From a virus (lineage: Duplodnaviria; Caudoviricetes): a DNA stretch of 37,773 bases. This document shows, piece by piece, positions 14,043-36,637 of this stretch (the stretch's first letter is position 1; each line of letters begins with the position of its first letter). The notes below the pieces were generated by a model that saw only the letters and a list, made by a program, of their open reading frames with translations, did not search any database and was not told where the DNA came from. The stretch is taken from the IMG/VR virus record IMGVR_UViG_3300048074_000106, positions 1 to 37,773 of that record; one strand, written 5' to 3'. Both the position numbers and the translations under genes were made by a program.

Positions 14043-15953
14043 CTAGCTGATGGTGGCCCCGGTCGCCTTCACGAAGGACTCGCCGTGACGGAGCACGACG
14101 TCGCCCATCTGGAAGGAGGTGACCACGATGAGGCCCTTGCCGGCCTGGGTGTACGGGTCGACGACCAGCTCCATCGCGTCCCACAGGCCGATGAGCAGAT
14201 CGTTCCAGTCGCCGAAGATGAGCCCGTGCTTCGTGCTCGCCTCAAGCGTCTTCGAGACCTGGCTGGTGCTGACAGCCCGGTAGCCGGCCATGAAGCCGTC
14301 CGCGATGGGACCGGTCCAGATCATCTTCGAACCGGCCGCGCTCGCCTCGAGCGTGCACATCATGAGCGACGCCATGAGCGGCGTGGTCATGTAGCCGGGG
14401 CTGACGAGACGGACGTTCTTGTCCGCCGCGAGCCCCTGCATGCCCACGATCTTGGCGTGGGTGGGGACACCACCCATGGCCTGGGGCTGAACGTCGGGGG
14501 CGGTGTAAATGCCGGTCGGCTCGCCGTTGACCCCGCTGCCGTGCAGGCCAGCCAGGTCGATGGCCAGCGCGTGACCCATCGCCAGCTCATCCCGGACCAT
14601 CGCCTCGACGTCGATCGAGGACTGGGCCAGGAGCTGCCGCGAGTAGCTCGTCGCGCCCTGCATGGTCTTCGGGGTGAGGAAGACCTGGCCGGTGGCGACG
14701 TCGCTCTTGGTGACGTCGGCGGCCGGGTTCTCCCCGACCCAGTAGACCGTCATCCCGGCGGTCTTCTTCGGGAAGGTCAGCGGCCCGGTGAGACCGGTCA
14801 GGAGACGGGCGCCCATCTGGACGACCATGGCTCGCGCGCGCAGCAGATCGATCAGCTCGCCCGGCGAGTCCTGAACGAACTCGGCTCCGGCGCCGGCGGT
14901 CTTGGAGTCGAGCGCGCGGGTGCCGAGGCGCATGGGGACGAGGATCCCGCCTCGACTCTGGTAGTTCGCCGGCAGGCCGCGGGCGAGCTCCTTGTGCAGC
15001 TCGCCTTCGAGCCCGTCGAATCCGGAGCGCTCGCCCTTGGCGGCCTCGGTCGACATGCGCAGCGCGCGCGTGTAGGAGTACCTCGCCAGGTCCTTGTCCG
15101 GCATGCCGGTGCGCTCGGCCGCGGGCTGGCCGGTGCCCGCGGTCTTGCGGGCCTTCACGATCTCGTACCCCACCTGCTGCGGAGTCAGGCCCTGGCCGAT
15201 CCACTCGGAGGCGCGCTCGCTCAGGTTGTTGTTCTGGCAGATGGCCAAGATCTCCTGGACCTCGGCGTTGCGGTCGCGCTTGGGCTCGGGTGCGGAGGCC
15301 GGCGGGGGCTGGACCTCGACAGCGCTACGGGCGCCATTGGGCTGGGGGGTGGTTTCGGGCTCGGGCACCATGGTTCGCTCCTCCTGTGGGACGGCCTGGC
15401 CGTCCGATTCGATCTCGACTTCGAACTCCTCGCGGTTGTCTCCGCGCTCGAGGCCGACCGAGACATCGGCGGCCAGTGGCAAGATGTGGACTTCGACCGG
15501 CATCCATCGGGTGGCGTTCCAGGTGTCAGGCTTTCCGCCTTCTCCCTTCACGACCTTCGCCTTCATGACCCGGTAGCCGAGGGAGACCTGGGTGCGGATA
15601 CGATCCTGCACGTCCCCCTCAACCTCCTGGCCCTTGGCGCTGCGCGAGAACCGGACGTCGCCCTTGAGCTTCCCGCCCTCGATGCGACCGTTCTCGAAGA
15701 TCCCGACCTGGGTTCCCCAGTGGCCACCGATCTGATCGGCTGCCATGACGGAGAGCCCGCCCTTCAGGTAGCGCTTGTCGATCGCTCCTTCGTCGTGGCT
15801 CAGAACTTCCATTCCGAACCAGCGTTCGATGGCGACCTCGCTCGATACGCTGAAGGTGTACTTCCGCTGATCGCCTTCGGCCCTGCCTTCCGGCGGGAGC
15901 TCCGGGCCTTCGAAGGCTCGGTGCAGCATCGGCAGTTTGCGCGGATCGGGCAT
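14043..15953 (-). CDS. Fused HK97-type prohead protease / major capsid protein, 636 aa
   Basis: N-terminal SVSSEVAIERWFGMEVLSH...VRFSRS...VSLGYRV (protease); C-terminal WVGEN, SYSRQLLAQSSIDVE and LIFGDWNDLLIGLW...VDPY (capsid). Confidence 0.93.
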   Translation of the reverse strand: MPDPRKLPMLHRAFEGPELPPEGRAEGDQRKYTFSVSSEVAIERWFGMEVLSHDEGAIDKRYLKGGLSVMAADQIGGHWGTQVGIFENGRIEGGKLKGDVRFSRSAKGQEVEGDVQDRIRTQVSLGYRVMKAKVVKGEGGKPDTWNATRWMPVEVHILPLAADVSVGLERGDNREEFEVEIESDGQAVPQEERTMVPEPETTPQPNGARSAVEVQPPPASAPEPKRDRNAEVQEILAICQNNNLSERASEWIGQGLTPQQVGYEIVKARKTAGTGQPAAERTGMPDKDLARYSYTRALRMSTEAAKGERSGFDGLEGELHKELARGLPANYQSRGGILVPMRLGTRALDSKTAGAGAEFVQDSPGELIDLLRARAMVVQMGARLLTGLTGPLTFPKKTAGMTVYWVGENPAADVTKSDVATGQVFLTPKTMQGATSYSRQLLAQSSIDVEAMVRDELAMGHALAIDLAGLHGSGVNGEPTGIYTAPDVQPQAMGGVPTHAKIVGMQGLAADKNVRLVSPGYMTTPLMASLMMCTLEASAAGSKMIWTGPIADGFMAGYRAVSTSQVSKTLEASTKHGLIFGDWNDLLIGLWDAMELVVDPYTQAGKGLIVVTSFQMGDVVLRHGESFVKATGATIS

Positions 15954-16609: not shown

Positions 16610-18124
16610 ATGAAGCGACCGTTCCGGACCAGGATGACTCGCGCTTGGCGCGAGCTGCAGGGCAAGCGCTCCTCCGACTACAAGGGCGCCGAGATGAACC
16701 GCCTCCTTCTCGACTGGGTGGCGCAGTCGCTCACCCCCGACGAGGAGATCCGCGGATCGGTGCGCAAGCTGCGCGCCCGCGCGCGCGAGCTCTCCCGCAA
16801 CGAGGGCTACGCCAAGCAGTATCTCCGGCTCCTCACCACCAACGTGATCGGGCCCCATGGGTTCCGGATGCAGGCCCAGGTGATGAAGGGCGATGTCTTC
16901 GACCGGGAAACGAACACCGCGATCGAGCGCGCCTGGCTCCGCTGGTCTGAGGGACGGGTCACGGTGGACGGAACCCTCACGCTACGTCGGCTTCAGAAGG
17001 TGTTGCTGCGCTCGGTTGCCCGCGACGGCGAGGTCTTCGTCCGGCGCTGGCTCTCGTTCGACGGGAACCCCTTCGGCTATGCGCTCCAGGCGATCGACGC
17101 CGACATGCTCGATGAAAACCTCAACCGCGCCCGCGGCAATGGCGTGAACGAGATTCGGATGGGCGTCGAGGTGGACGGCGTCGGCCGGCCCCTCGGCTAC
17201 TGGTTCTTCAAGAACCCCGAGGATCGGGTGCTCAACACCGGGACCGCCGGCCGGATCTTCGTGACTGCCACTGAGGTCCTCCACCTCTACGATGCCGACC
17301 GCCCAAATCAGACCCGCGGCGTGACGTGGCTTCATCCGATCATGGTCCCGATGAAGATGCTCGGGGGGTACGAGGAGGCGGAGCTGGTCGCCGCCCGCAC
17401 CGCGGCGGCGAAGATGGGCTTCATCCAGTCCCCCGACGGAGTCGGCGACCCCGGCGACATGAACGAGCCGGCCGAGATGGAGGCGGCCCCCGGCACCATG
17501 GAGCGCCTGCAGGCCGGCGAGACGTTCCAGCCCTGGGACCCCCAGCACCCGACCACGGCCTTCCCCATCTTCGTAAAGTCCCTGCTTCGCAAGATCTCCG
17601 CCGGCCTGGGCGTCTCCTACAACGCCCTCGCTAACGATCTCGAGGGAGTCAACTACTCCTCGATGCGCTCCGGCCTTCTCATCGAGCGCGACCACTGGAA
17701 GGACGTTCAGGTCGACTGGATCGAGGACTTCCTGCAGCCCGTCTTCGAGGACTGGTTGAACATGGCGCTCCTCACCGGGGCGCTCGTCCTCGACTCGATG
17801 GATGCGACCCGATATGCCAACGAGGTGGTTTGGAAGCCCCGCGGCTGGCAGTGGGTGGATCCGGCGAAGGACATCGCTGCGATCGAGAAGAGCATCGAGC
17901 TCGGACTCACCTCGCGAACCAAGGCCTGCGCCGAGTCGGGCGACGACTACGAGGAGAACCTGCTCAACCTCGAGCGCGAGGAGCGCATGGCCAAGGAGAA
18001 GGGGATCTCGATCCAGGGCAAGCCTACCACCGCGCCCCTTCAACCGCCCCCCGGAGATCCGGAGGACGACGACGATTCCGAAGAGAGCCAGCGGACCCTG
18101 CTGGCTGGGAGGTTCCGCCAATGA
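16610..18124 (+). CDS. Portal protein, lambda family
   Basis: LRARARELSRN, RDGEVF, MGVEVDGVGRPLGYW, QTRGVTW, DLEGVNYSSMRSG and W.PRGWQWVDPAKD. Confidence 0.96.
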   Translation: MKRPFRTRMTRAWRELQGKRSSDYKGAEMNRLLLDWVAQSLTPDEEIRGSVRKLRARARELSRNEGYAKQYLRLLTTNVIGPHGFRMQAQVMKGDVFDRETNTAIERAWLRWSEGRVTVDGTLTLRRLQKVLLRSVARDGEVFVRRWLSFDGNPFGYALQAIDADMLDENLNRARGNGVNEIRMGVEVDGVGRPLGYWFFKNPEDRVLNTGTAGRIFVTATEVLHLYDADRPNQTRGVTWLHPIMVPMKMLGGYEEAELVAARTAAAKMGFIQSPDGVGDPGDMNEPAEMEAAPGTMERLQAGETFQPWDPQHPTTAFPIFVKSLLRKISAGLGVSYNALANDLEGVNYSSMRSGLLIERDHWKDVQVDWIEDFLQPVFEDWLNMALLTGALVLDSMDATRYANEVVWKPRGWQWVDPAKDIAAIEKSIELGLTSRTKACAESGDDYEENLLNLEREERMAKEKGISIQGKPTTAPLQPPPGDPEDDDDSEESQRTLLAGRFRQ

Positions 18125-20756: not shown

Positions 20757-20999
20757 ATGACCGCACCGAACGACGGAAGTGGTGAGAGGCCGATCGGCAA
20801 CGGCTGGACCTCTGCCCAGGAATGGGTGAAGCGCGAACTGGACACCCTGTCCGATGGGCAGACCGCACTCAACACGAAGATGGATCGCAGCCACGCGGAA
20901 CTCGGCGCCAAGATCGACCGGCTTATCTGGTGGATGCTATCGCAAACGGTCGTCGTCGTGCTGGCCGTGTTCGTCGAGCTGATGCGGAGACACATGTGA
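20757..20999 (+). CDS. Coiled-coil protein with C-terminal TM helix; holin/antiholin-like
   Basis: Ends LIWWMLSQTVVVVLAVFVELMRRHM and is coupled to the endolysin start (GTGA). Confidence 0.6.
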   Translation: MTAPNDGSGERPIGNGWTSAQEWVKRELDTLSDGQTALNTKMDRSHAELGAKIDRLIWWMLSQTVVVVLAVFVELMRRHM

Positions 21000-21508
21000 G
21001 CATCGAGCGCGTGACCGAGCGCGTACTGACGGGACTCATCGAAGAGGCACGGCAACCTGCTCTCATGCTCATCGCGTGCGCCGCAGACCAAGGCGCCGCG
21101 TTGCGAGTCACCCGCACCTTCGATACCTGGGCAACCCAGGCGGCCTACTACGCCCAGGGTCGTCAGCCTCTCGACCAGGTCAACGCGCTGCGCGCCGGCG
21201 TTGGGCTCCCCCCCATCACCGCGAAGCAGAACGACTACACGATTTCGGATGCGCGACCAGGTCGCAGCTGGCACAACTGGTGTCGCGCTCTCGACGTCGT
21301 CCCCGTCGACGAAGCCACGTCCCCCGACTTCCGGGATCCGGATAACCCACTCTGGAGCGCCCCCTACTGGGTGGCCATCGGCGAACTCGGAGAGGCACTG
21401 GGCTTCGAGTGGGGCGGTCGATGGGGCGACAACCCCCACTTTCAATGGACCCGCGGCGCAACCCTCGCTGGCTTGCTCGCGCAGTTTCCGCAGGGGATCC
21501 GCATATGA
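20996..21508 (+). CDS. Endolysin, M15 family peptidase (CwlK/Ply500-like), 170 aa
   Basis: YAQGR, SWHNWCRALD (SxHxxxxAxD) and EWGGRWGDNPHFQ. Confidence 0.88.
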   Translation: MSIERVTERVLTGLIEEARQPALMLIACAADQGAALRVTRTFDTWATQAAYYAQGRQPLDQVNALRAGVGLPPITAKQNDYTISDARPGRSWHNWCRALDVVPVDEATSPDFRDPDNPLWSAPYWVAIGELGEALGFEWGGRWGDNPHFQWTRGATLAGLLAQFPQGIRI

Positions 21509-22416
21509 GAACGCTGGTCGCAAGCGGTGGCGCGTTCAAGGGCGCCGTGCAGGTTGGGATGATCGATGGCCTCTGCGGGCTCGAGTGGCTCAAGCAGCGC
21601 AACGCGGCAGGCCCCATCCCCGGATCCTGGGTGCTTCCCTGGCAGCTCTACCTCGGCGTCTCGACCGGCAGCCTCCAGGCCTCTATTGCCGCGTGCGGCC
21701 GCTACTCCGATGTGGAGAAGCTCAAGGCTCGCTGGTCTGGCCTAAAGGGGATCGGCGACATCATGAAGATGCGTAGCTGGGGCTGGCTCCGCCTCGCTCC
21801 GATCGTGGCCGGCGGCTCCCTCTACACCTTCGAGCCTCTCCGCGAGATCCTCCAGAAAGACCTGAGTGACGAGGACATCGAGCGGATCCGTCGTTACGGC
21901 AATCGGTTCCTGTGCGGCTACACCGACATGCAGACGCTCACCTACAAGGTAGCTGACGACCGCAACCCGAACATCCGCACATGGATCGAGGCGAGCTGCT
22001 CGGTGCCCGGCTATCACGAGGGTGTGTTTGGCCGCTACTTCGACGGTGGGGTGCGCAACATCACCCCTCTCGCGGACGCGATCCACGCCGGCGCCACCGA
22101 GATCGACGTGCTCCTGGCTTCCCCGCTGAAGCCGACAACGAAGGCCGTTCCCAAGACCGTGTTTGGCCGCGTGGGGCGCGCGATCGACGGGCTCACCAAC
22201 GAGATCATGCGCGACGATCTGCGGGAGGTGGCGCGGCGCAATCTCTACCCGCGGCCAGGCGATCGCGAGATCAAGATCCGCGTTTACATGCCCAGCGAGC
22301 CGGTCAACGCCTCATGGTGCTTGAAGCCCGGCGACTATGCCCGGATGTTCCAGATCGGCTACGCGCTGGCGGCGCACCCGCTGACGGTGGCCCAGGCCCT
22401 TGGAGAGGAGATCTGA
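21505..22416 (+). CDS. Patatin-like phospholipase, 303 aa
   Basis: ATG overlaps the endolysin stop (ATGA). Gly-rich SGGAFKG, nucleophile GVSTG, ASCSVP and catalytic DGG are all intact. Confidence 0.92.
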   Translation: MRTLVASGGAFKGAVQVGMIDGLCGLEWLKQRNAAGPIPGSWVLPWQLYLGVSTGSLQASIAACGRYSDVEKLKARWSGLKGIGDIMKMRSWGWLRLAPIVAGGSLYTFEPLREILQKDLSDEDIERIRRYGNRFLCGYTDMQTLTYKVADDRNPNIRTWIEASCSVPGYHEGVFGRYFDGGVRNITPLADAIHAGATEIDVLLASPLKPTTKAVPKTVFGRVGRAIDGLTNEIMRDDLREVARRNLYPRPGDREIKIRVYMPSEPVNASWCLKPGDYARMFQIGYALAAHPLTVAQALGEEI

Positions 22417-22417
22417 C

Positions 22418-22696
22418 ATGCTGAAGAAGATCGGGAAGAAGCTCTGGACCGTGATCGGGAGCGCCGTGCTCCTCCCCGCGCTTTACGTGACGCTCACCAA
22501 GAAGTTCGGTCTGGACGAGACCGCGGCCCAGCACGTGATCGAGGTGGTGGGCAGCCTGGTCGGCCTGGGTCTGATCGGCCACACCGCGAGCGACATCGCC
22601 ATCACCCGCAAGGTGATCGAAGGCGAATCCGCCGAGCGCGTCGCGGAGATGTCCCCCCAGGGCACCGGTGACGTTAACGTCATCCACACCCGCTGA
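22418..22696 (+). CDS. Small two-TM membrane protein, holin-like, 92 aa
   Basis: GAGGAG SD, basic N-terminus, two hydrophobic segments and a charged C-terminal tail. Confidence 0.65.
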   Translation: MLKKIGKKLWTVIGSAVLLPALYVTLTKKFGLDETAAQHVIEVVGSLVGLGLIGHTASDIAITRKVIEGESAERVAEMSPQGTGDVNVIHTR

Positions 22697-27934: not shown

Positions 27935-28402
27935 CTATCGCCCTGGGATCCACACCTCGCCCGGCGACCAGCAGCCTCGACGGAGGCCTGACGTTCCGAG
28001 CGGGGGGAAGTAGTACTGATCGATCGGTGCACAGAGCCGCGTCGCGCGCCCGCTCCCGATGTTGATCGCCTCCACCCTGAACCTGTAGTCAGCGATCGAG
28101 TGCCAAGGCCGAACGCGCACCGCGTGGTAGAGCGAGTCCGCGGCCGTGCTGTCTGGGTTTGCCGTCTCCGCGAAGTCGACAAAGCCGGCCAGAACCTCGA
28201 AGATGTCCCCATCGGCACGGCCGTAGACCTCGAGGTAGGCGATCTGGTCGAGCCCGGCCCACGGCCTGCTCGTGTCGGGCAGGCAGGTGTTCGGGATGGC
28301 CAGGTACTTCGGCGCCCGCACTGCGATCGTGAACGAGCAGTCCTGAGCGGCCGCAACGCCGGCGATGGCCGTGAGAACGAGCGCACCGAGAAGCCCCCGC
28401 AC
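27935..28402 (-). CDS. Exported beta-sandwich (FN3-like) hypothetical protein
   Basis: Signal peptide MRGLLGALVLTAIAGVAAA|QD, motif YRFRVEAIN..G and four Cys. Confidence 0.65.
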   Translation of the reverse strand: MRGLLGALVLTAIAGVAAAQDCSFTIAVRAPKYLAIPNTCLPDTSRPWAGLDQIAYLEVYGRADGDIFEVLAGFVDFAETANPDSTAADSLYHAVRVRPWHSIADYRFRVEAINIGSGRATRLCAPIDQYYFPPLGTSGLRRGCWSPGEVWIPGR

Positions 28403-28839: not shown

Positions 28840-28854
28840 GGTCTCCCCCGGATT

Positions 28855-28892
28855 CCGCCGGGCCCGAGAGTGAGTCGTCCCGGGCCCGGCGG
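28855..28892 (-). terminator. Strong intergenic hairpin after the Ig-like gene (no U-tract)
   Basis: Perfect 12-bp arms CCGCCGGGCCCG (28855-28866) and CGGGCCCGGCGG (28881-28892). Confidence 0.5.
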
Positions 28893-28922
28893 TGATCCTT
28901 GTTCCGCTCTCTCTGCGCTCCG

Positions 28923-29249
28923 CTATTCGGGCCCCATCTGCGCCCTCTTGCGCGGCTCCCCGAAGCTGAGCGTCCCGCCGGCAGGCACACCGAGGCCGAT
29001 CGTCACGTCTCCGGTGTAGTCAGCGGTCGCCCCGTCGGGCGTGGTTACCCGGATCGCCAGCTGGGCGGAGCCCACGATCCCGGTCGCCCGCGCGATCCCC
29101 GTCCCCGGATTATCCGGGCTCTCGATGAACTCGCAGACCTCGGTGTTGCTCGACATGAACTCCACCGAGGCGATCTCGCACGGGTCCCCGTCGTCATCCA
29201 CGACGGGCGGCAGGGCGACATCCACCTCTTCGTCAATCTCGAACCTCAT
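28923..29249 (-). CDS. Acidic Ig-like (Big_2-like) protein without signal peptide, 108 aa
   Basis: AGGAG SD. VDDDGDP...VEFMSSNTEVCEF...ATGIVGSAQLAIRV...TGDVTI is an Ig-like strand pattern, followed by the tail GVPAGGTLSFGEPRKR. Confidence 0.72.
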   Translation of the reverse strand: MRFEIDEEVDVALPPVVDDDGDPCEIASVEFMSSNTEVCEFIESPDNPGTGIARATGIVGSAQLAIRVTTPDGATADYTGDVTIGLGVPAGGTLSFGEPRKRAQMGPE

Positions 29250-29253
29250 CCGC

Positions 29254-29397
29254 TCATCTCCTCTTTCGTGGCGCGCCGAAGATGAGCCTGCCCCCCGTGG
29301 GCTGCCCCGGCTTCGAGCGCATCCGTAGCACTCCGAATAGAAACCAACTGACCACGATCCCAATCGCGACACCCACGGCGATGAGCACGACGGTCAT
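29254..29397 (-). CDS. 47-aa single-TM peptide (not in the ORF track)
   Basis: ATG overlaps the upstream stop (ATGA). Sequence MTVVLIAVGVAIGIVVSWFLFGVLRMRSKPGQPTGGRLIFGAPRKRR fills the gap exactly and contains the SD of the next gene. Confidence 0.8.
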   Translation of the reverse strand: MTVVLIAVGVAIGIVVSWFLFGVLRMRSKPGQPTGGRLIFGAPRKRR

Positions 29398-29624
29398 GCC
29401 GGTCGCCCCACGAGAGCGAGCTCAGGTGTTGGCCCCGGTCCGCACTGAGAACCGAGTCCTGTGCGACGCTCCTGATTGGGGATCGGCGGCAGTCGCAGCC
29501 ATGCGTCGTGGATCATCTCGAGCGTGGTCCGCGTCCACCCGCACGCGGAGCAGGACCAGGTGCCGCGCTGCCCGGCGACCGGGGGCGTGAAGATGGTGAG
29601 CTCACCGCAGTCGGGGCACTTCAT
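29394..29624 (-). CDS. Zinc-ribbon protein, 76 aa
   Basis: MKCPDCG...WSCSACGW; ATGA overlaps on both sides. Confidence 0.7.
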   Translation of the reverse strand: MKCPDCGELTIFTPPVAGQRGTWSCSACGWTRTTLEMIHDAWLRLPPIPNQERRTGLGSQCGPGPTPELALVGRPA

Positions 29625-30802: not shown

Positions 30803-31047
30803 CTCCTTTGCGCCACCGACGGGGAAGCGGGCAAGGTGGGTAGCACCGGAACCCGCCCCCCCGCCGTGGACGCACGCTCGGCTTTCGCCCTGCGCTCCGT
30901 AGCGCGCCTCTCAAGCTCCGCCTTTGCGATCAGCCCGAGGGACGCGAATGCCTTCACCAAGGGATCCGGATCGTTGCCGCAGCGCTCCGCGATCCGCGCC
31001 CACGTCACCAGGGCGCTGTTTGGCTCGCGGGCGAGGGCGGGAGTCAC
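30799..31047 (-). CDS. Hypothetical protein, 82 aa
   Basis: Start overlaps the cro stop (GTGA) and follows a GGAG SD. Confidence 0.55.
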   Translation of the reverse strand: MTPALAREPNSALVTWARIAERCGNDPDPLVKAFASLGLIAKAELERRATERRAKAERASTAGGRVPVLPTLPASPSVAQRR

Positions 31048-31316
31048 GGTCTCTCCCGCCGCTCATCGAGGATGCTGGTGTCGAAGAGGGCGTCCGGCCG
31101 GATCCGAAACGCGTTCACCATCGCCTGGATGAAGCGGTAGGACGGCCCCCCACGGCCGGAGAGCCAGACCTTCACCGCGTTCTCCGAAGCCCCGATCGCG
31201 CCTGCAAACTGACCGGGCGTAAGGCCTGTGGCCTCCAAGTGCGCCTGGAGCTTGCGGCTGCAAAGAGTCTGCGAGGACTCAGTTTGTGCCAATCCGACCA
31301 CCTGATGCTTGCCCAT
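31044..31316 (-). CDS. Cro-like XRE HTH regulator, 90 aa
   Basis: ATG at 31316 follows GGAGG. GLTPGQFAGAIGASENAVKVWLSGRGGPS; divergent from the repressor. Confidence 0.85.
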   Translation of the reverse strand: MGKHQVVGLAQTESSQTLCSRKLQAHLEATGLTPGQFAGAIGASENAVKVWLSGRGGPSYRFIQAMVNAFRIRPDALFDTSILDERRERP

Positions 31317-31319
31317 GTC

Positions 31320-31420
31320 TAACCCTCCGCGCCTAAGATCGTCCTCATAAGACCAAAAATCAAGCCCCAAAATGGTAGGACGGGCTATTTATTTTGTGGG
31401 TCTGGTAAGATGTTGCGCGG
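31320..31420. promoter_or_regulatory. cI/cro genetic switch region
   Basis: AT-rich gap between divergent HTH genes with four TARGAY half-site-like words, the dyad GTCCT-CAT-AAGAC and an extended -10 TGGTAAGAT toward cI. Confidence 0.65.
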
Positions 31421-32114: not shown

Positions 32115-32579
32115 ATGCGTTGCCAGTTGGGTACCTGCCTCCTGATTGTCCTCATGCTCACCGGTTGTGCCTCTGCTCCTCGCCAGCATGACTACGACAA
32201 GATGTTCACTTATGCCGAGGACTACGAGTCGATCTGGAAAGCCGTGATCGCTACGTTCGCCGAACTCAATCTTCCCATTTCCAATCTAGAAAAGGACTCG
32301 GGTTTGGTCATGACCGACTGGATCGACGTCGGATCGACCGACTTTGAGGGCAGAGCCTGCGATTGCGGCAAAGCAGGGCTGGCGACCACGCTGGCGACTC
32401 GCATGAAGTTCAACGTCTTCGTACGAGACGACAGCGGCGAAGGCATATCGGTGACGGTCAATGTCACATCTCAGCAACTCCGCGAGTTATTGGACGAGCA
32501 GAAGTGGTTTCCCTGCACATCACTCGGAAGCCTGGAGTCCGCCATCAACGTGAAGATCTCCAGTCACCTCAGATCCTAG
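32115..32579 (+). CDS. Lipoprotein, BamC-like alpha/beta domain
   Basis: Lipobox LTG|C; YESIWKAVIATFAELNLPI.NLEKDSGLV.TDW. Confidence 0.75.
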   Translation: MRCQLGTCLLIVLMLTGCASAPRQHDYDKMFTYAEDYESIWKAVIATFAELNLPISNLEKDSGLVMTDWIDVGSTDFEGRACDCGKAGLATTLATRMKFNVFVRDDSGEGISVTVNVTSQQLRELLDEQKWFPCTSLGSLESAINVKISSHLRS

Positions 32580-32597: not shown

Positions 32598-33044
32598 ATG
32601 CGTGTGCTGGTCATCGCTCTATGCCTTGTCGTCACGGGCTGCGCGAGCACGACCCCAAGGGACACCTACTACTCAGAGATGAACGCTGCGACCTCCGCCG
32701 ACTCCTTGAACTCCACCACCTTGTCCAGCGCTGACTGCTACCTCATGGGCAAGGACTCCGCGAAGGAATGGGTCAACACGGGCTGGGACACGGCCAACGG
32801 ATTCGCGGGCGGCCTCTTGTTCGGCGTGATAGGTGCCGCAATCAGCTATGCCTTCGTGGACGAACCATCGCCTCCATCGGATCTGACCTCTGACCTGAAA
32901 GAGAAGGGGTGTCGAGCGGCCTTCCGCATCGGATACGGCGAGGCTGGGCAATCGAAGAAGAGGAGTGCCACGCTGACCGGGGGGATCATTGGCACCGCGA
33001 CTCTCATTGCCATCTACGTCTCCACCTATTCCGGCTCCTACTGA
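32598..33044 (+). CDS. Lipoprotein with two Gly-rich hydrophobic segments
   Basis: GGAGG SD, lipobox VTG|C, GFAGGLLFGVIGAAISYAF and GGIIGTATLIAIYV. Confidence 0.75.
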   Translation: MRVLVIALCLVVTGCASTTPRDTYYSEMNAATSADSLNSTTLSSADCYLMGKDSAKEWVNTGWDTANGFAGGLLFGVIGAAISYAFVDEPSPPSDLTSDLKEKGCRAAFRIGYGEAGQSKKRSATLTGGIIGTATLIAIYVSTYSGSY

Positions 33045-34684: not shown

Positions 34685-36637
34685 CTACTTCCAACCGTCC
34701 ACCCAGCCGCCACGCTTCCGCGCGCGCGGCCGCGGCGCGCTCGCTACCGGCGCCTCGGGAAGCGGCTCCTCTGGAGAATCAACTTGGGAGGCGAGCCGCG
34801 CGGCGCGCTCCGGAAGGGAGCGAATCACCGGCTGCCCCAGGATGTGCAGCGCGGCCAGGCAGTAGACCTCGAGGTCGAGCGCTTCGTTGCGCTCCCGCAA
34901 CTTGATCCACTCCCGCACCCGGCCCCGGTTCTTCACCCACTTCCAGATCGCCTTCTCGGCCGTGAGCTGCTCGAGGTACTCGACGTCGACCCAGTCGGGG
35001 AGGTGGACGAACCCAGGCCCCTTCGACTTGATCCGCAGGCGGGAGAGGATGATGTCCTTGGCGGTGTCGACGCAGAGGGTGAAGAGCTTCGCGTGGTAGC
35101 GGTTGTGGGTGGTCGGCCGCTTGGGCACGACCGGCTTCCCCTTCTCGTTCCCGCCGCGGACTGCGAAGACCCGACGGTGGAGTCGGGCCCGGCAGAACTT
35201 GTAGACCTCCTCGGTGTGGTGACCGCCGGAGTCGACGGTGACGCAGGAGATCTTGATCTTGCGGCCGCTCTCGTGAACGAACTCCTGGGTGAGGAACTTG
35301 TCGAGCTCGAGCCAAGTGCTCTCGTGAACCGGATCCCCGTGCACCTGATGGAAGGCGATCAGCCACGACTCCTCGCCGGCGCCGTACCCCTTCACCTGAG
35401 CCTCGATGCGATCGCCTTGGACGTCGACCGCTGCGACGAGGATTCCCACGCCGGCGGGGACCTCGGCGACGTAGCTCTCGAGCCGGCCGACCAAGCTGTC
35501 GGCGTCGAGCGAGTCTCCGCGCTCCTCCCAGGTCTCCCCGAGGACGGTGTTCACCCAGGTCTGTAGGCGGAACGGATCCTCCTTCCCTTCAATGAACTCG
35601 GACACGCATTCAGCCCAGGATTTCCACCCGAGCGGAGAGTAGAGGGCGGAGAGGTGGAACCCGACCGTCCGCCCCGTGCTCTTCGCCGTGGGCCGCCACT
35701 CCCCACCGGCGAGCATCAGCGTCTTGTACCGTTCCTCAATGAGGCGCTCGCACGCCACGCAGGCCAGCTTCGCCGTCTCTGGGCGAGCCTCTTCCCACCG
35801 GATGTTCTCCCAGCGGATCCAGTCGAAGTGGCCACAGTGGGGGCAGGCCACGAAGTAGCGGCGCTGGTCCGAGGCCAGGAACTCCTTCTCGATGCGGGAG
35901 ACGCCCTTCATGGTGGGCGTCGACGTCATGAGGATCTTGCGACGAGGGAAGGTGGCGGTGCGTTTCTCGGCGAGGGAGACCGGATCCCCTTCGCTCTCCA
36001 CGTTTCCGGGATAAGCGTCTACCTCGTCCATGAAGAGAAATCTCGCCGGCATGCGACGGAGCCCCTTCGCTGAGTTCGCCCCCGTGATCGCCAGGATCCC
36101 ACCGGGGAACTCCTTCATGAGGGTCGTGTTCCCCGAGTCCCGCGATCGAGCCTCCTTCACCAGTGCGCGTAGCGCCGGCGTCTCCTCGATCATGGGAGAG
36201 AGGCGCTGCTTGCTCTCCGCCCGGGCAATGTCGACGGTCGGTTCCACGAACAGGACCGGACCCGGAACGTGGTGGATGATGTAGCCGATCGCGTTGTTTA
36301 TCGCTTCCGTCTTGCCCACCTGGCTCCCGGCCATGAAGACCACTCGCCGGGCACGGTTGTGAGCCGACATGCAGTCCATCGGCTCCCGGAGGTAGGGCGC
36401 CCTCGAAGTGCGCCAGGGCCCCGGCTCGCTCGAGGTCATCGAGCTCAGGACGCGGTGCTCATCCGCCCACTGGCTGACCGTGAGGACCGGGTCCGGCGCG
36501 AAGCCGCGGGCGGCGGCGTCGAAGACGATGAATCGGGCGCGCCGACGTTGGTCGTCTCCTTCCGGATCGTCTTCGACAAGGCCGAGCTCAGCTGGTTCAG
36601 AGCTCCCCGGATCGCGTCTTCGAGGATGTCGTGGCAC
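34685..36637 (-). CDS. Terminase large subunit, lambda GpA family
   Basis: VSQWADEHR, EPGPWRTSRAPYLREPMD, Walker A SQVGKT, Walker B FMDEVD, STPT, CPHC, VDVQ, DSGG and RNEALD. Confidence 0.97.
   Translation of the reverse strand: MPRHPRRRDPGSSEPAELGLVEDDPEGDDQRRRARFIVFDAAARGFAPDPVLTVSQWADEHRVLSSMTSSEPGPWRTSRAPYLREPMDCMSAHNRARRVVFMAGSQVGKTEAINNAIGYIIHHVPGPVLFVEPTVDIARAESKQRLSPMIEETPALRALVKEARSRDSGNTTLMKEFPGGILAITGANSAKGLRRMPARFLFMDEVDAYPGNVESEGDPVSLAEKRTATFPRRKILMTSTPTMKGVSRIEKEFLASDQRRYFVACPHCGHFDWIRWENIRWEEARPETAKLACVACERLIEERYKTLMLAGGEWRPTAKSTGRTVGFHLSALYSPLGWKSWAECVSEFIEGKEDPFRLQTWVNTVLGETWEERGDSLDADSLVGRLESYVAEVPAGVGILVAAVDVQGDRIEAQVKGYGAGEESWLIAFHQVHGDPVHESTWLELDKFLTQEFVHESGRKIKISCVTVDSGGHHTEEVYKFCRARLHRRVFAVRGGNEKGKPVVPKRPTTHNRYHAKLFTLCVDTAKDIILSRLRIKSKGPGFVHLPDWVDVEYLEQLTAEKAIWKWVKNRGRVREWIKLRERNEALDLEVYCLAALHILGQPVIRSLPERAARLASQVDSPEEPLPEAPVASAPRPRARKRGGWVDGWK

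Follow-up and report, generated by a model that had tools for sequence, protein, structure and literature searches.

A phage Ig-domain cassette with a duplicated strand motif: a candidate membrane-tethered donor-strand chain in the host cytoplasm

The stretch of DNA analysed here, referred to below as the window, is a whole virus record of 37,773 bases with direct terminal repeats, found in bioreactor metagenomes. Its terminase, portal, capsid, tail, repressor and serine integrase genes type the phage as a temperate lambda-like siphophage. On the minus strand, two adjacent small genes (the cassette) encode a 47-aa peptide with one predicted transmembrane (TM) helix and a 108-aa immunoglobulin (Ig)-like protein, and both products carry the same strand motif near their C-termini. 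The cassette and its features, in the order of transcription, are:

29254..29397, minus strand: gene of the putative anchor peptide, 47 aa; one TM helix, a basic linker and a donor-type strand, without an acceptor domain
29341..29391, minus strand: predicted TM helix core, peptide residues 3-19, mean KD 2.73
29260..29307, minus strand: strand motif, peptide copy, residues 31-46, PSSM p 0.005
29258..29265, minus strand: Shine-Dalgarno (SD) site of the Ig gene, within the last codons of the peptide; -9.1 kcal/mol, beating all internal controls
28923..29249, minus strand: Ig subunit gene, 108 aa, acidic, without signal peptide
28995..29249, minus strand: Big_2-like beta-sandwich, residues 1-85, starting at strand A', with strand A absent
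28944..28991, minus strand: strand motif, Ig tail copy, residues 87-102; unpaired in the monomer model, putative donor strand
28850..28898, minus strand: strong RNA hairpin 3' of the Ig gene, with no U tract on the coding strand

The cassette is part of an operon that starts with a Cro-like gene (31044-31370) and extends to a ParB-like gene and a replication gene; this Cro-side early operon lies apart from the morphogenesis and lysis genes. Low-depth contigs from RNA runs cover parts of the cassette, but equally the remainder of the genome, and therefore speak neither for nor against expression. The hairpin downstream of the Ig gene, already remarked upon in the first-pass annotation of the window, reaches -44.4 kcal/mol for a 91-nt stretch (z -3.8, none of 200 shuffles being as strong) and is likely an mRNA stabiliser or terminator; downstream hairpins with z ≤ -2 were found in 21 of 41 family loci. 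Two genes downstream of the cassette lies a gene (27935-28402, minus strand) for a 155-aa protein that seems to have a cleavable signal peptide and that matched none of the families searched.

The two motif copies are identical at 11 of 16 positions and give a local BLOSUM score of 57, which none of 20,000 shuffles of the peptide reached (maximum 50), so that the sharing of a motif by the TM peptide and the Ig protein, the starting point of the first-pass annotation, holds. The Ig protein was, however, quoted there as ending in PRKRA, while its actual C-terminus extends by five more residues, QMGPE. Among the called genes of the window no other match to the pattern L/I/V-x-F-G-x-P was found. 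Nucleotide identity within the motif is 14, 12 and 8 of 17 for the first, second and third codon positions, the third being the most diverged, which indicates that the match is maintained at the protein level; GC3 of the two cassette genes (0.77 and 0.89) is as in other genes of the window. The final codons of the peptide, AAG AGG AGA, also serve as the SD site of the Ig gene, so that the terminal KRR is under two constraints. The stop codon and the 4-nt gap between the genes read identically in the DNA run X4 (contig 28927-29558), and the split into two genes is thus not an assembly error. In the peptide, whose nearest counterpart is L053:868-1005, no basic residue precedes the TM helix and three follow within 15 residues, predicting an N-out/C-in topology.

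The Ig protein, with a net charge of -14 and no signal peptide, is as acidic and unexported in appearance as first described. AF2 models it with pLDDT 89 as a seven-stranded sandwich in which the strands stop at residue 85 and the tail is left unpaired, and the tail is likewise unpaired, at pLDDT 85-89, in the model of a fused relative (P0043), where the upstream strand is also left undocked (pLDDT < 50). By VIA the window fold aligns with Z 8.4-9.5 to SbsC, 7quz, LigA and gpV-C, and Big_2-type domains overall gave Z 8-10.6 with an rmsd of about 2-3 Å over 70-85 residues. The window protein has no Pfam match, and Foldseek against the PDB returned no match at E ≤ 0.001; Big_2 (PF02368) scores above the curated cut-off in 9 of 16 wide-family members, which were chosen partly for known matches. 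The start of the Ig protein aligns about 12-14 residues into the lone Big_2 domains 2n7s, 2mog and 2l04 (Z 6.7-8.4), and residue 6 of P0121 corresponds to Big_2 Pfam position 19, from which the Ig start extrapolates to position 14; strand A is therefore missing. In four Atlas rows (5, 6, 8 and 10) the alignment to larger proteins with Big_2 domains takes in the entire chain up to and including the tail, which is what a tail equivalent to strand A of a following repeat would produce. In an Ig fold of this kind the end of strand G and the start of strand A are at opposite poles, and the linker between strand G and the tail strand, at five residues, is too short for the tail to return to its own domain.

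Relatives of the cassette are numerous. A full HMMER search gave 13 relatives plus one near-identical copy, 5 of the 13 being single ORFs in which an N-terminal region and the motif are followed by the Ig domain and the motif again. A profile search yielded 215 wide-family proteins, 120 of them listed, and the window subfamily is homologous to the wide family over 101 columns (hhalign P 98.8, E 1e-16). An N-terminal extension of at least 15 residues is present in 81 of 135 proteins analysed, and where it reaches at least 20 residues a Met lies within three residues of the Ig start in 75 of 80 cases (expected 4.5%). In a set of 41 loci, from which duplicates and partial matches were dropped (L006, L007, L027, L028, L040, L042, L044, L045, L046, L049), 26 have an in-frame extension, with the strand in these fused loci judged by eye, 9 have a separate upstream peptide and 6 have neither, one of these six being cut by the contig end and one degraded. 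The first-pass annotation had named two findings that would speak against its proposal, a tail folded back into its own domain and homologues without an upstream partner; the tail is not folded back in either AF2 model, and an upstream strand-bearing element is found in 35 of the 41 loci. An SD site stands before the Ig start in 18 of the 26 fused loci and in 8 of the 9 split ones. Phylogenetically the two arrangements are intermingled, with eight changes on the best tree and at least two forced by supported branches. The same design seems to be realised in some members by two separate genes and in others by a single ORF with a second, internal start. A programmed frameshift joining the split genes was rejected, since the gaps (4, 4, 7, 5, 12, 22, 30, 9 and 5 nt) fall into all three frames, and a longer, 149-aa start of the window Ig protein was rejected because the relatives begin at an SD-backed Met.

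The closest layout is that of locus L053, which is the same as in the window and in which peptide and tail match each other. A word-index search with the window Ig protein found only itself, a scan of viral contigs with the subfamily pattern found nothing, and a scan of metagenomes with the same pattern, covering 12 of 64 parts, found one locus; the subfamily loci accordingly rest on the window and L053. Two further candidates, L002 and L003, were discarded as chance matches inside an unrelated 466-aa ORF. Cultivated members of the wide family are found in the Nocardia phages NBR1, NOC3 and KYD2, in the Streptomyces phage Satis (gp30) and its cluster, and in the Ralstonia phage RP13 (ORF216), and the cassette occurs in Acidobacteriota and Dependentiae assemblies too; no plasmid match to it was found. 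No model in Pfam, PHROGs or NCBIfam represents the family as such. Of the 30 nearest Atlas clusters with at least 50 members, 29 are labelled hypothetical (the listed clusters being 93-100% viral), and no published description was found in the open-access literature searched. The family is large, widespread among phages and without a name. Among its members, RP13 ORF216 (L054:5932-6342) has an unannotated in-frame extension of 21 codons with its own strong SD site and a strand-like sequence. Satis gp30 (L008:6737-7558), which is extended at the N-terminus and has an internal GTG preceded by an SD site, carries an additional PKD-like domain at the C-terminus and is possibly a decorated subunit. 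In two loci with no upstream anchor (L047:1182-1511 and L048:5316-5639) the Ig gene is immediately followed by a conserved gene for a 110-aa beta-rich protein, which has no Pfam match and is a possible alternative partner.

The upstream strand resembles the tail to a degree that depends on the part of the family considered. In the window subfamily all eight upstream motifs match the tail profile at p ≤ 0.05, and they score better on the subfamily tail profile than on that of the wide family. In the wide family the likeness is weak: at p ≤ 0.05 the tail profile is matched by 22 of 74 long forms and by 2 of the 7 split peptides, and with a strand-only profile the counts are 6 of 38 and 4 of 36. 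Across 51 rows the terminal charge of the upstream strand tracks that of the tail (rho 0.57), so that the co-variation which the first-pass annotation suggested looking for in homologous gene pairs is seen alongside the co-occurrence in 35 of 41 loci. Furthermore, upstream residue 105 and residue 20 of the loop vary together (7 of 10 against 0 of 39 after removal of two motif-less rows), though supported branches provide only one independent pair for this link. One alignment, A6, was dropped since its upstream strands were misaligned.

Coevolution between the tail and the Ig domain was analysed by mean-field DCA on 154 wide-family sequences (effective number 125; P0090 numbering). As a positive control, 13 of 33 top core pairs fell on expected strand registers, against a background of 6%. 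The tail running antiparallel to strand B, at register i+j=111, has a mean Z of 1.65 versus 0.49 ± 0.19, a value that was not reached in any of 65 tree-based null simulations. It derives from two or three strong pairs, between which the values are close to zero. The antiparallel pairs of tail and strand B are I16-V95, S7-E104 and K9-E103. I16-V95, S7-E104, K77-E91, N22-G57, A55-Q105 and K20-Q105 were among the 35 top-ranked pairs in 86-89 of 89 subsamples, and the coupled pairs, G90-E104 included, were stable in 83-89 of 89, with the exception of K9-E103 (69). These couplings would place the tail in the position of the missing strand, beside strand B. Two of the stable pairs, K77-E91 and N22-G57, link opposite poles of the domain, as judged from the predicted strand order without coordinates, and K77-E91 occurs with reversed charge (R/K-E 28, E-K 6); they may point to head-to-tail contacts, although no enrichment is seen for opposite-pole pairs taken together (3 versus 2.55). 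From A55-Q105, G90-E104 and K20-Q105 it would follow that the end of the tail meets one acceptor pole together with the other pole of a further subunit. The charge pattern differs between the groups, the window subfamily having an acidic loop and basic strand ends and the wide family a basic loop and acidic strand ends.

A parallel register (j-i=85) also exceeds the null, with a mean of 1.17 that none of the 65 simulations reached. Together with the couplings K19-E104, K20-Q105 and S7-G90 it would fit a monomer whose tail lies parallel to its own strand B, the peptide then competing for this site as a switch or acting as a 1:1 membrane tether. The parallel signal comes from terminal pairs, however; the mid-strand pairs 9-94 and 10-95 recur in only 17 and 21 of the 89 subsamples, respectively, and neither AF2 model folds the tail back. 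I16-V95, S7-E104, A55-Q105, G90-E104, K77-E91 and N22-G57 do not fit such an arrangement either, which makes it decidedly improbable. That the two tails are instead linear motifs for one host partner, which the proteins tune or bridge while the Ig domain is complete enough alone, was the alternative offered by the first-pass annotation, and the near-identity of the motifs in the window subfamily is indeed reminiscent of shared docking motifs. Yet the co-variation of the tail is with positions in the Ig domain, which lacks exactly such a strand. The cassette moreover occurs in Streptomyces, Nocardia and Ralstonia phages and in assemblies of Acidobacteriota and Dependentiae, a range that makes one common host partner unlikely, and we give this explanation very little credence. 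Taken with the geometry of the fold, the coevolution leads us to infer that the tail occupies the strand-A groove in trans, and strand donation between subunits in some form is quite probable.

Whether such donation produces an open or a closed assembly is a separate matter. Swapped Ig dimers are well known, and a reciprocal, tail-swapped antiparallel dimer satisfies all stable couplings, fitting them as well as a chain does, and the five-residue linker after strand G could turn; in a closed dimer or small ring the peptide would only recruit one or a few subunits to the membrane or open the dimer. Against this, an anchor that only donates leaves a free tail able to recruit more subunits, and the last residue of the upstream strand tracks loop residue 20, which in the antiparallel register would require a second subunit, albeit through a link that is not phylogenetically independent. 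We consider a closed exchange rather unlikely. The open chain is instead suggested by the division of labour in the cassette, in which the anchor would donate only, the subunit would both accept and donate, and the separate strong start of the Ig gene would give an excess of subunit.

The location of the proposed chain is predicted from the anchors. In all eight TM-type anchors basic residues are more numerous behind the helix than ahead of it, which predicts a C-in topology, in agreement with the cytoplasmic orientation that the positive-inside rule had suggested for the window peptide, and none of 53 short forms has a hydrophobic N-terminus or the look of an exported protein. The positive-inside rule and the lack of signal peptides together suggest a cytoplasmic chain. 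Most relatives lack the TM helix: of 81 anchors scored, 4 were TM, 20 amphipathic (by a loose test), 53 other and 4 too short. Membrane tethering is accordingly likely for the window, and with 4 of 81 anchors scored as TM it is not extended to the family. To judge from these sequences, the anchor is interchangeable, being a TM helix, an amphipathic helix, a coiled coil or a short basic strand. In L019:4775-4975, P0041, P0066 and P0094, Cys-/His-rich or polybasic stretches lie just before the strand and would be compatible with possible metal or lipid binding.

The genes around the cassette were surveyed in 38 loci with 315 heuristically called neighbours, 199 of which were scanned. Packaging, head, tail or lysis genes lie within 5 kb in 22 of the 38 loci, with terminase, portal or capsid genes near 15 and tail, connector or endolysin-like genes near 7. 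This proximity would suit a virion fibre or decoration that is attached to head, neck or tail through its anchor and is lengthened by the Ig units for adhesion, a function known from other phage Ig domains. The same holds for the position of Satis gp30, with its added PKD-like domain, directly after the major capsid gene, for that of NBR1 gp26 among minor tail genes, and for the structural Ig proteins that 8 of 36 members match weakly in PHROGs. A TM helix as anchor, found here and in seven relatives, is difficult to reconcile with a tailed virion, which has no membrane; moreover, the window cassette belongs to a Cro-side early operon, that of RP13 lies among tRNA genes, and there is no fixed partner gene, the cassette standing beside sheath-bearing and non-sheath modules alike. 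The Satis genome paper contains no virion proteomics (PMC6687918), and none was found published for NBR1 or RP13. A role in the virion is improbable. Both flanking genes are on the other strand in four loci, and no third gene recurs among the 315 neighbours of the 38 loci; the cassette thus behaves as a mobile, self-contained unit.

The reading that we prefer, with a probability of roughly 0.55, is a membrane-tethered open chain of Ig subunits with a dedicated anchor. Translation would yield little anchor and much subunit; the strand of the anchor would fill the groove of the first subunit, and the tail of each subunit would insert into the next, head-to-tail, in the cytoplasm, so that the 47-aa peptide would supply both the first strand and the tether to the inner face of the host membrane. 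The first-pass annotation had proposed such a filament, and its case is in part supported, if indirectly, by the missing strand A, the unpaired tail, the coevolution, the paired upstream strand and the predicted C-in topology of the TM anchors, while it is weakened by the equal fit of a closed dimer, the undocked upstream strand of P0043, the small number of TM anchors and the six of 41 loci without an upstream element. The most likely role of the chain would be that of a membrane-tethered scaffold made during lytic growth. More tentatively, and at somewhat less than even odds, the family as a whole may form widespread cytoplasmic phage filaments of a circularly permuted Ig domain, which would polymerise on their own by C-terminal strand donation without chaperone, usher, protease or export, from a swappable nucleator that serves as inner-membrane anchor, with the ratio of anchor to shaft set by the two starts or by the split.

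Donor-strand filaments are known as exported surface structures of bacteria and archaea. In chaperone-usher pili the donor is N-terminal and the missing strand is the last, while TasA of Bacillus, a secreted and larger protein of unrelated fold with an N-terminal donor, has an accessory anchor or nucleator, TapA. The phage Ig protein shares with chaperone-usher pili (Fim, Pap, CupE) an incomplete Ig fold, which in the pili is completed by the terminal strand of the neighbour (PMC7616799 and PMC13655056), as proposed here for the cassette. Unlike these pili, it has its extra strand at the C-terminus and no signal peptide; the pili need chaperone, usher and export, whereas no such genes recur beside the cassette, and no chaperone or usher genes were found within the window. 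TasA fibres, which are donor-strand exchange filaments without an usher (PMC9674648), would resemble the cassette in being usher-free. The closest parallel is offered by type V pili (Porphyromonas Fim and Mfa), in which a C-terminal donor strand enters the groove of the neighbour and a membrane anchor subunit bears a donor (PMC13655056), corresponding to the putative C-terminal donor and the donor-bearing anchor of the cassette. Type V pilins, however, are two-domain transthyretin-like lipoproteins with Sec/Lol export and gingipain cleavage as the trigger, whereas the cassette has one 85-residue Big_2-like domain and an anchor that consists of a helix and a strand and is predicted to be cytoplasmic. 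No signal or lipobox is present in its sequence, none of the 53 short forms has the hydrophobic N-terminus that export would call for, the short form has no removable N-terminal strand, and no protease recurs as a neighbour in the 38 loci. By analogy, the cassette likely works like type V pili but is not one. Tandem Big_2 or phage Ig domains (LigA/B, SbsC, lambda gpV-C, the SU10 tail and GP4 fibre I) have the same fold and are complete and covalently chained, whereas in the cassette the repeat is cut after strand A and the anchor separately carries the first strand, so that the phage chain would be non-covalent. The feature is real and would be a variant of a known assembly principle, donor-strand exchange.

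If the proposed chain is correct, an unexported phage version made of one 100-residue domain and an anchor strand would be a new intracellular phage structure, and it would provide a mechanism for a large family now labelled hypothetical. Such an intracellular, pilus-like phage scaffold would represent a minimal self-assembling and programmable fibre with an exchangeable anchor.

Elsewhere in the window, the segment 16052-22696, with the lambda-type portal (16610-18124) and the lysis genes, is on the plus strand, opposite to the capsid, tail and large terminase blocks (14043-15953 and 34685-36637, both minus), and the terminase is distant from the portal; this strand switch is either a real inversion or a matter of assembly. 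Within the lysis cassette, a patatin-like phospholipase gene (21421-22416, plus strand; PF01734, E 8e-19) is flanked by an M15-type endolysin gene (20822-21508) and a holin-like gene (22418-22696). Between repressor and integrase lie two lipoprotein-like genes on the plus strand (32115-32579 and 32598-33044), the product of the first having a weak NlpB/DapX-like match, and both are candidates for superinfection exclusion.
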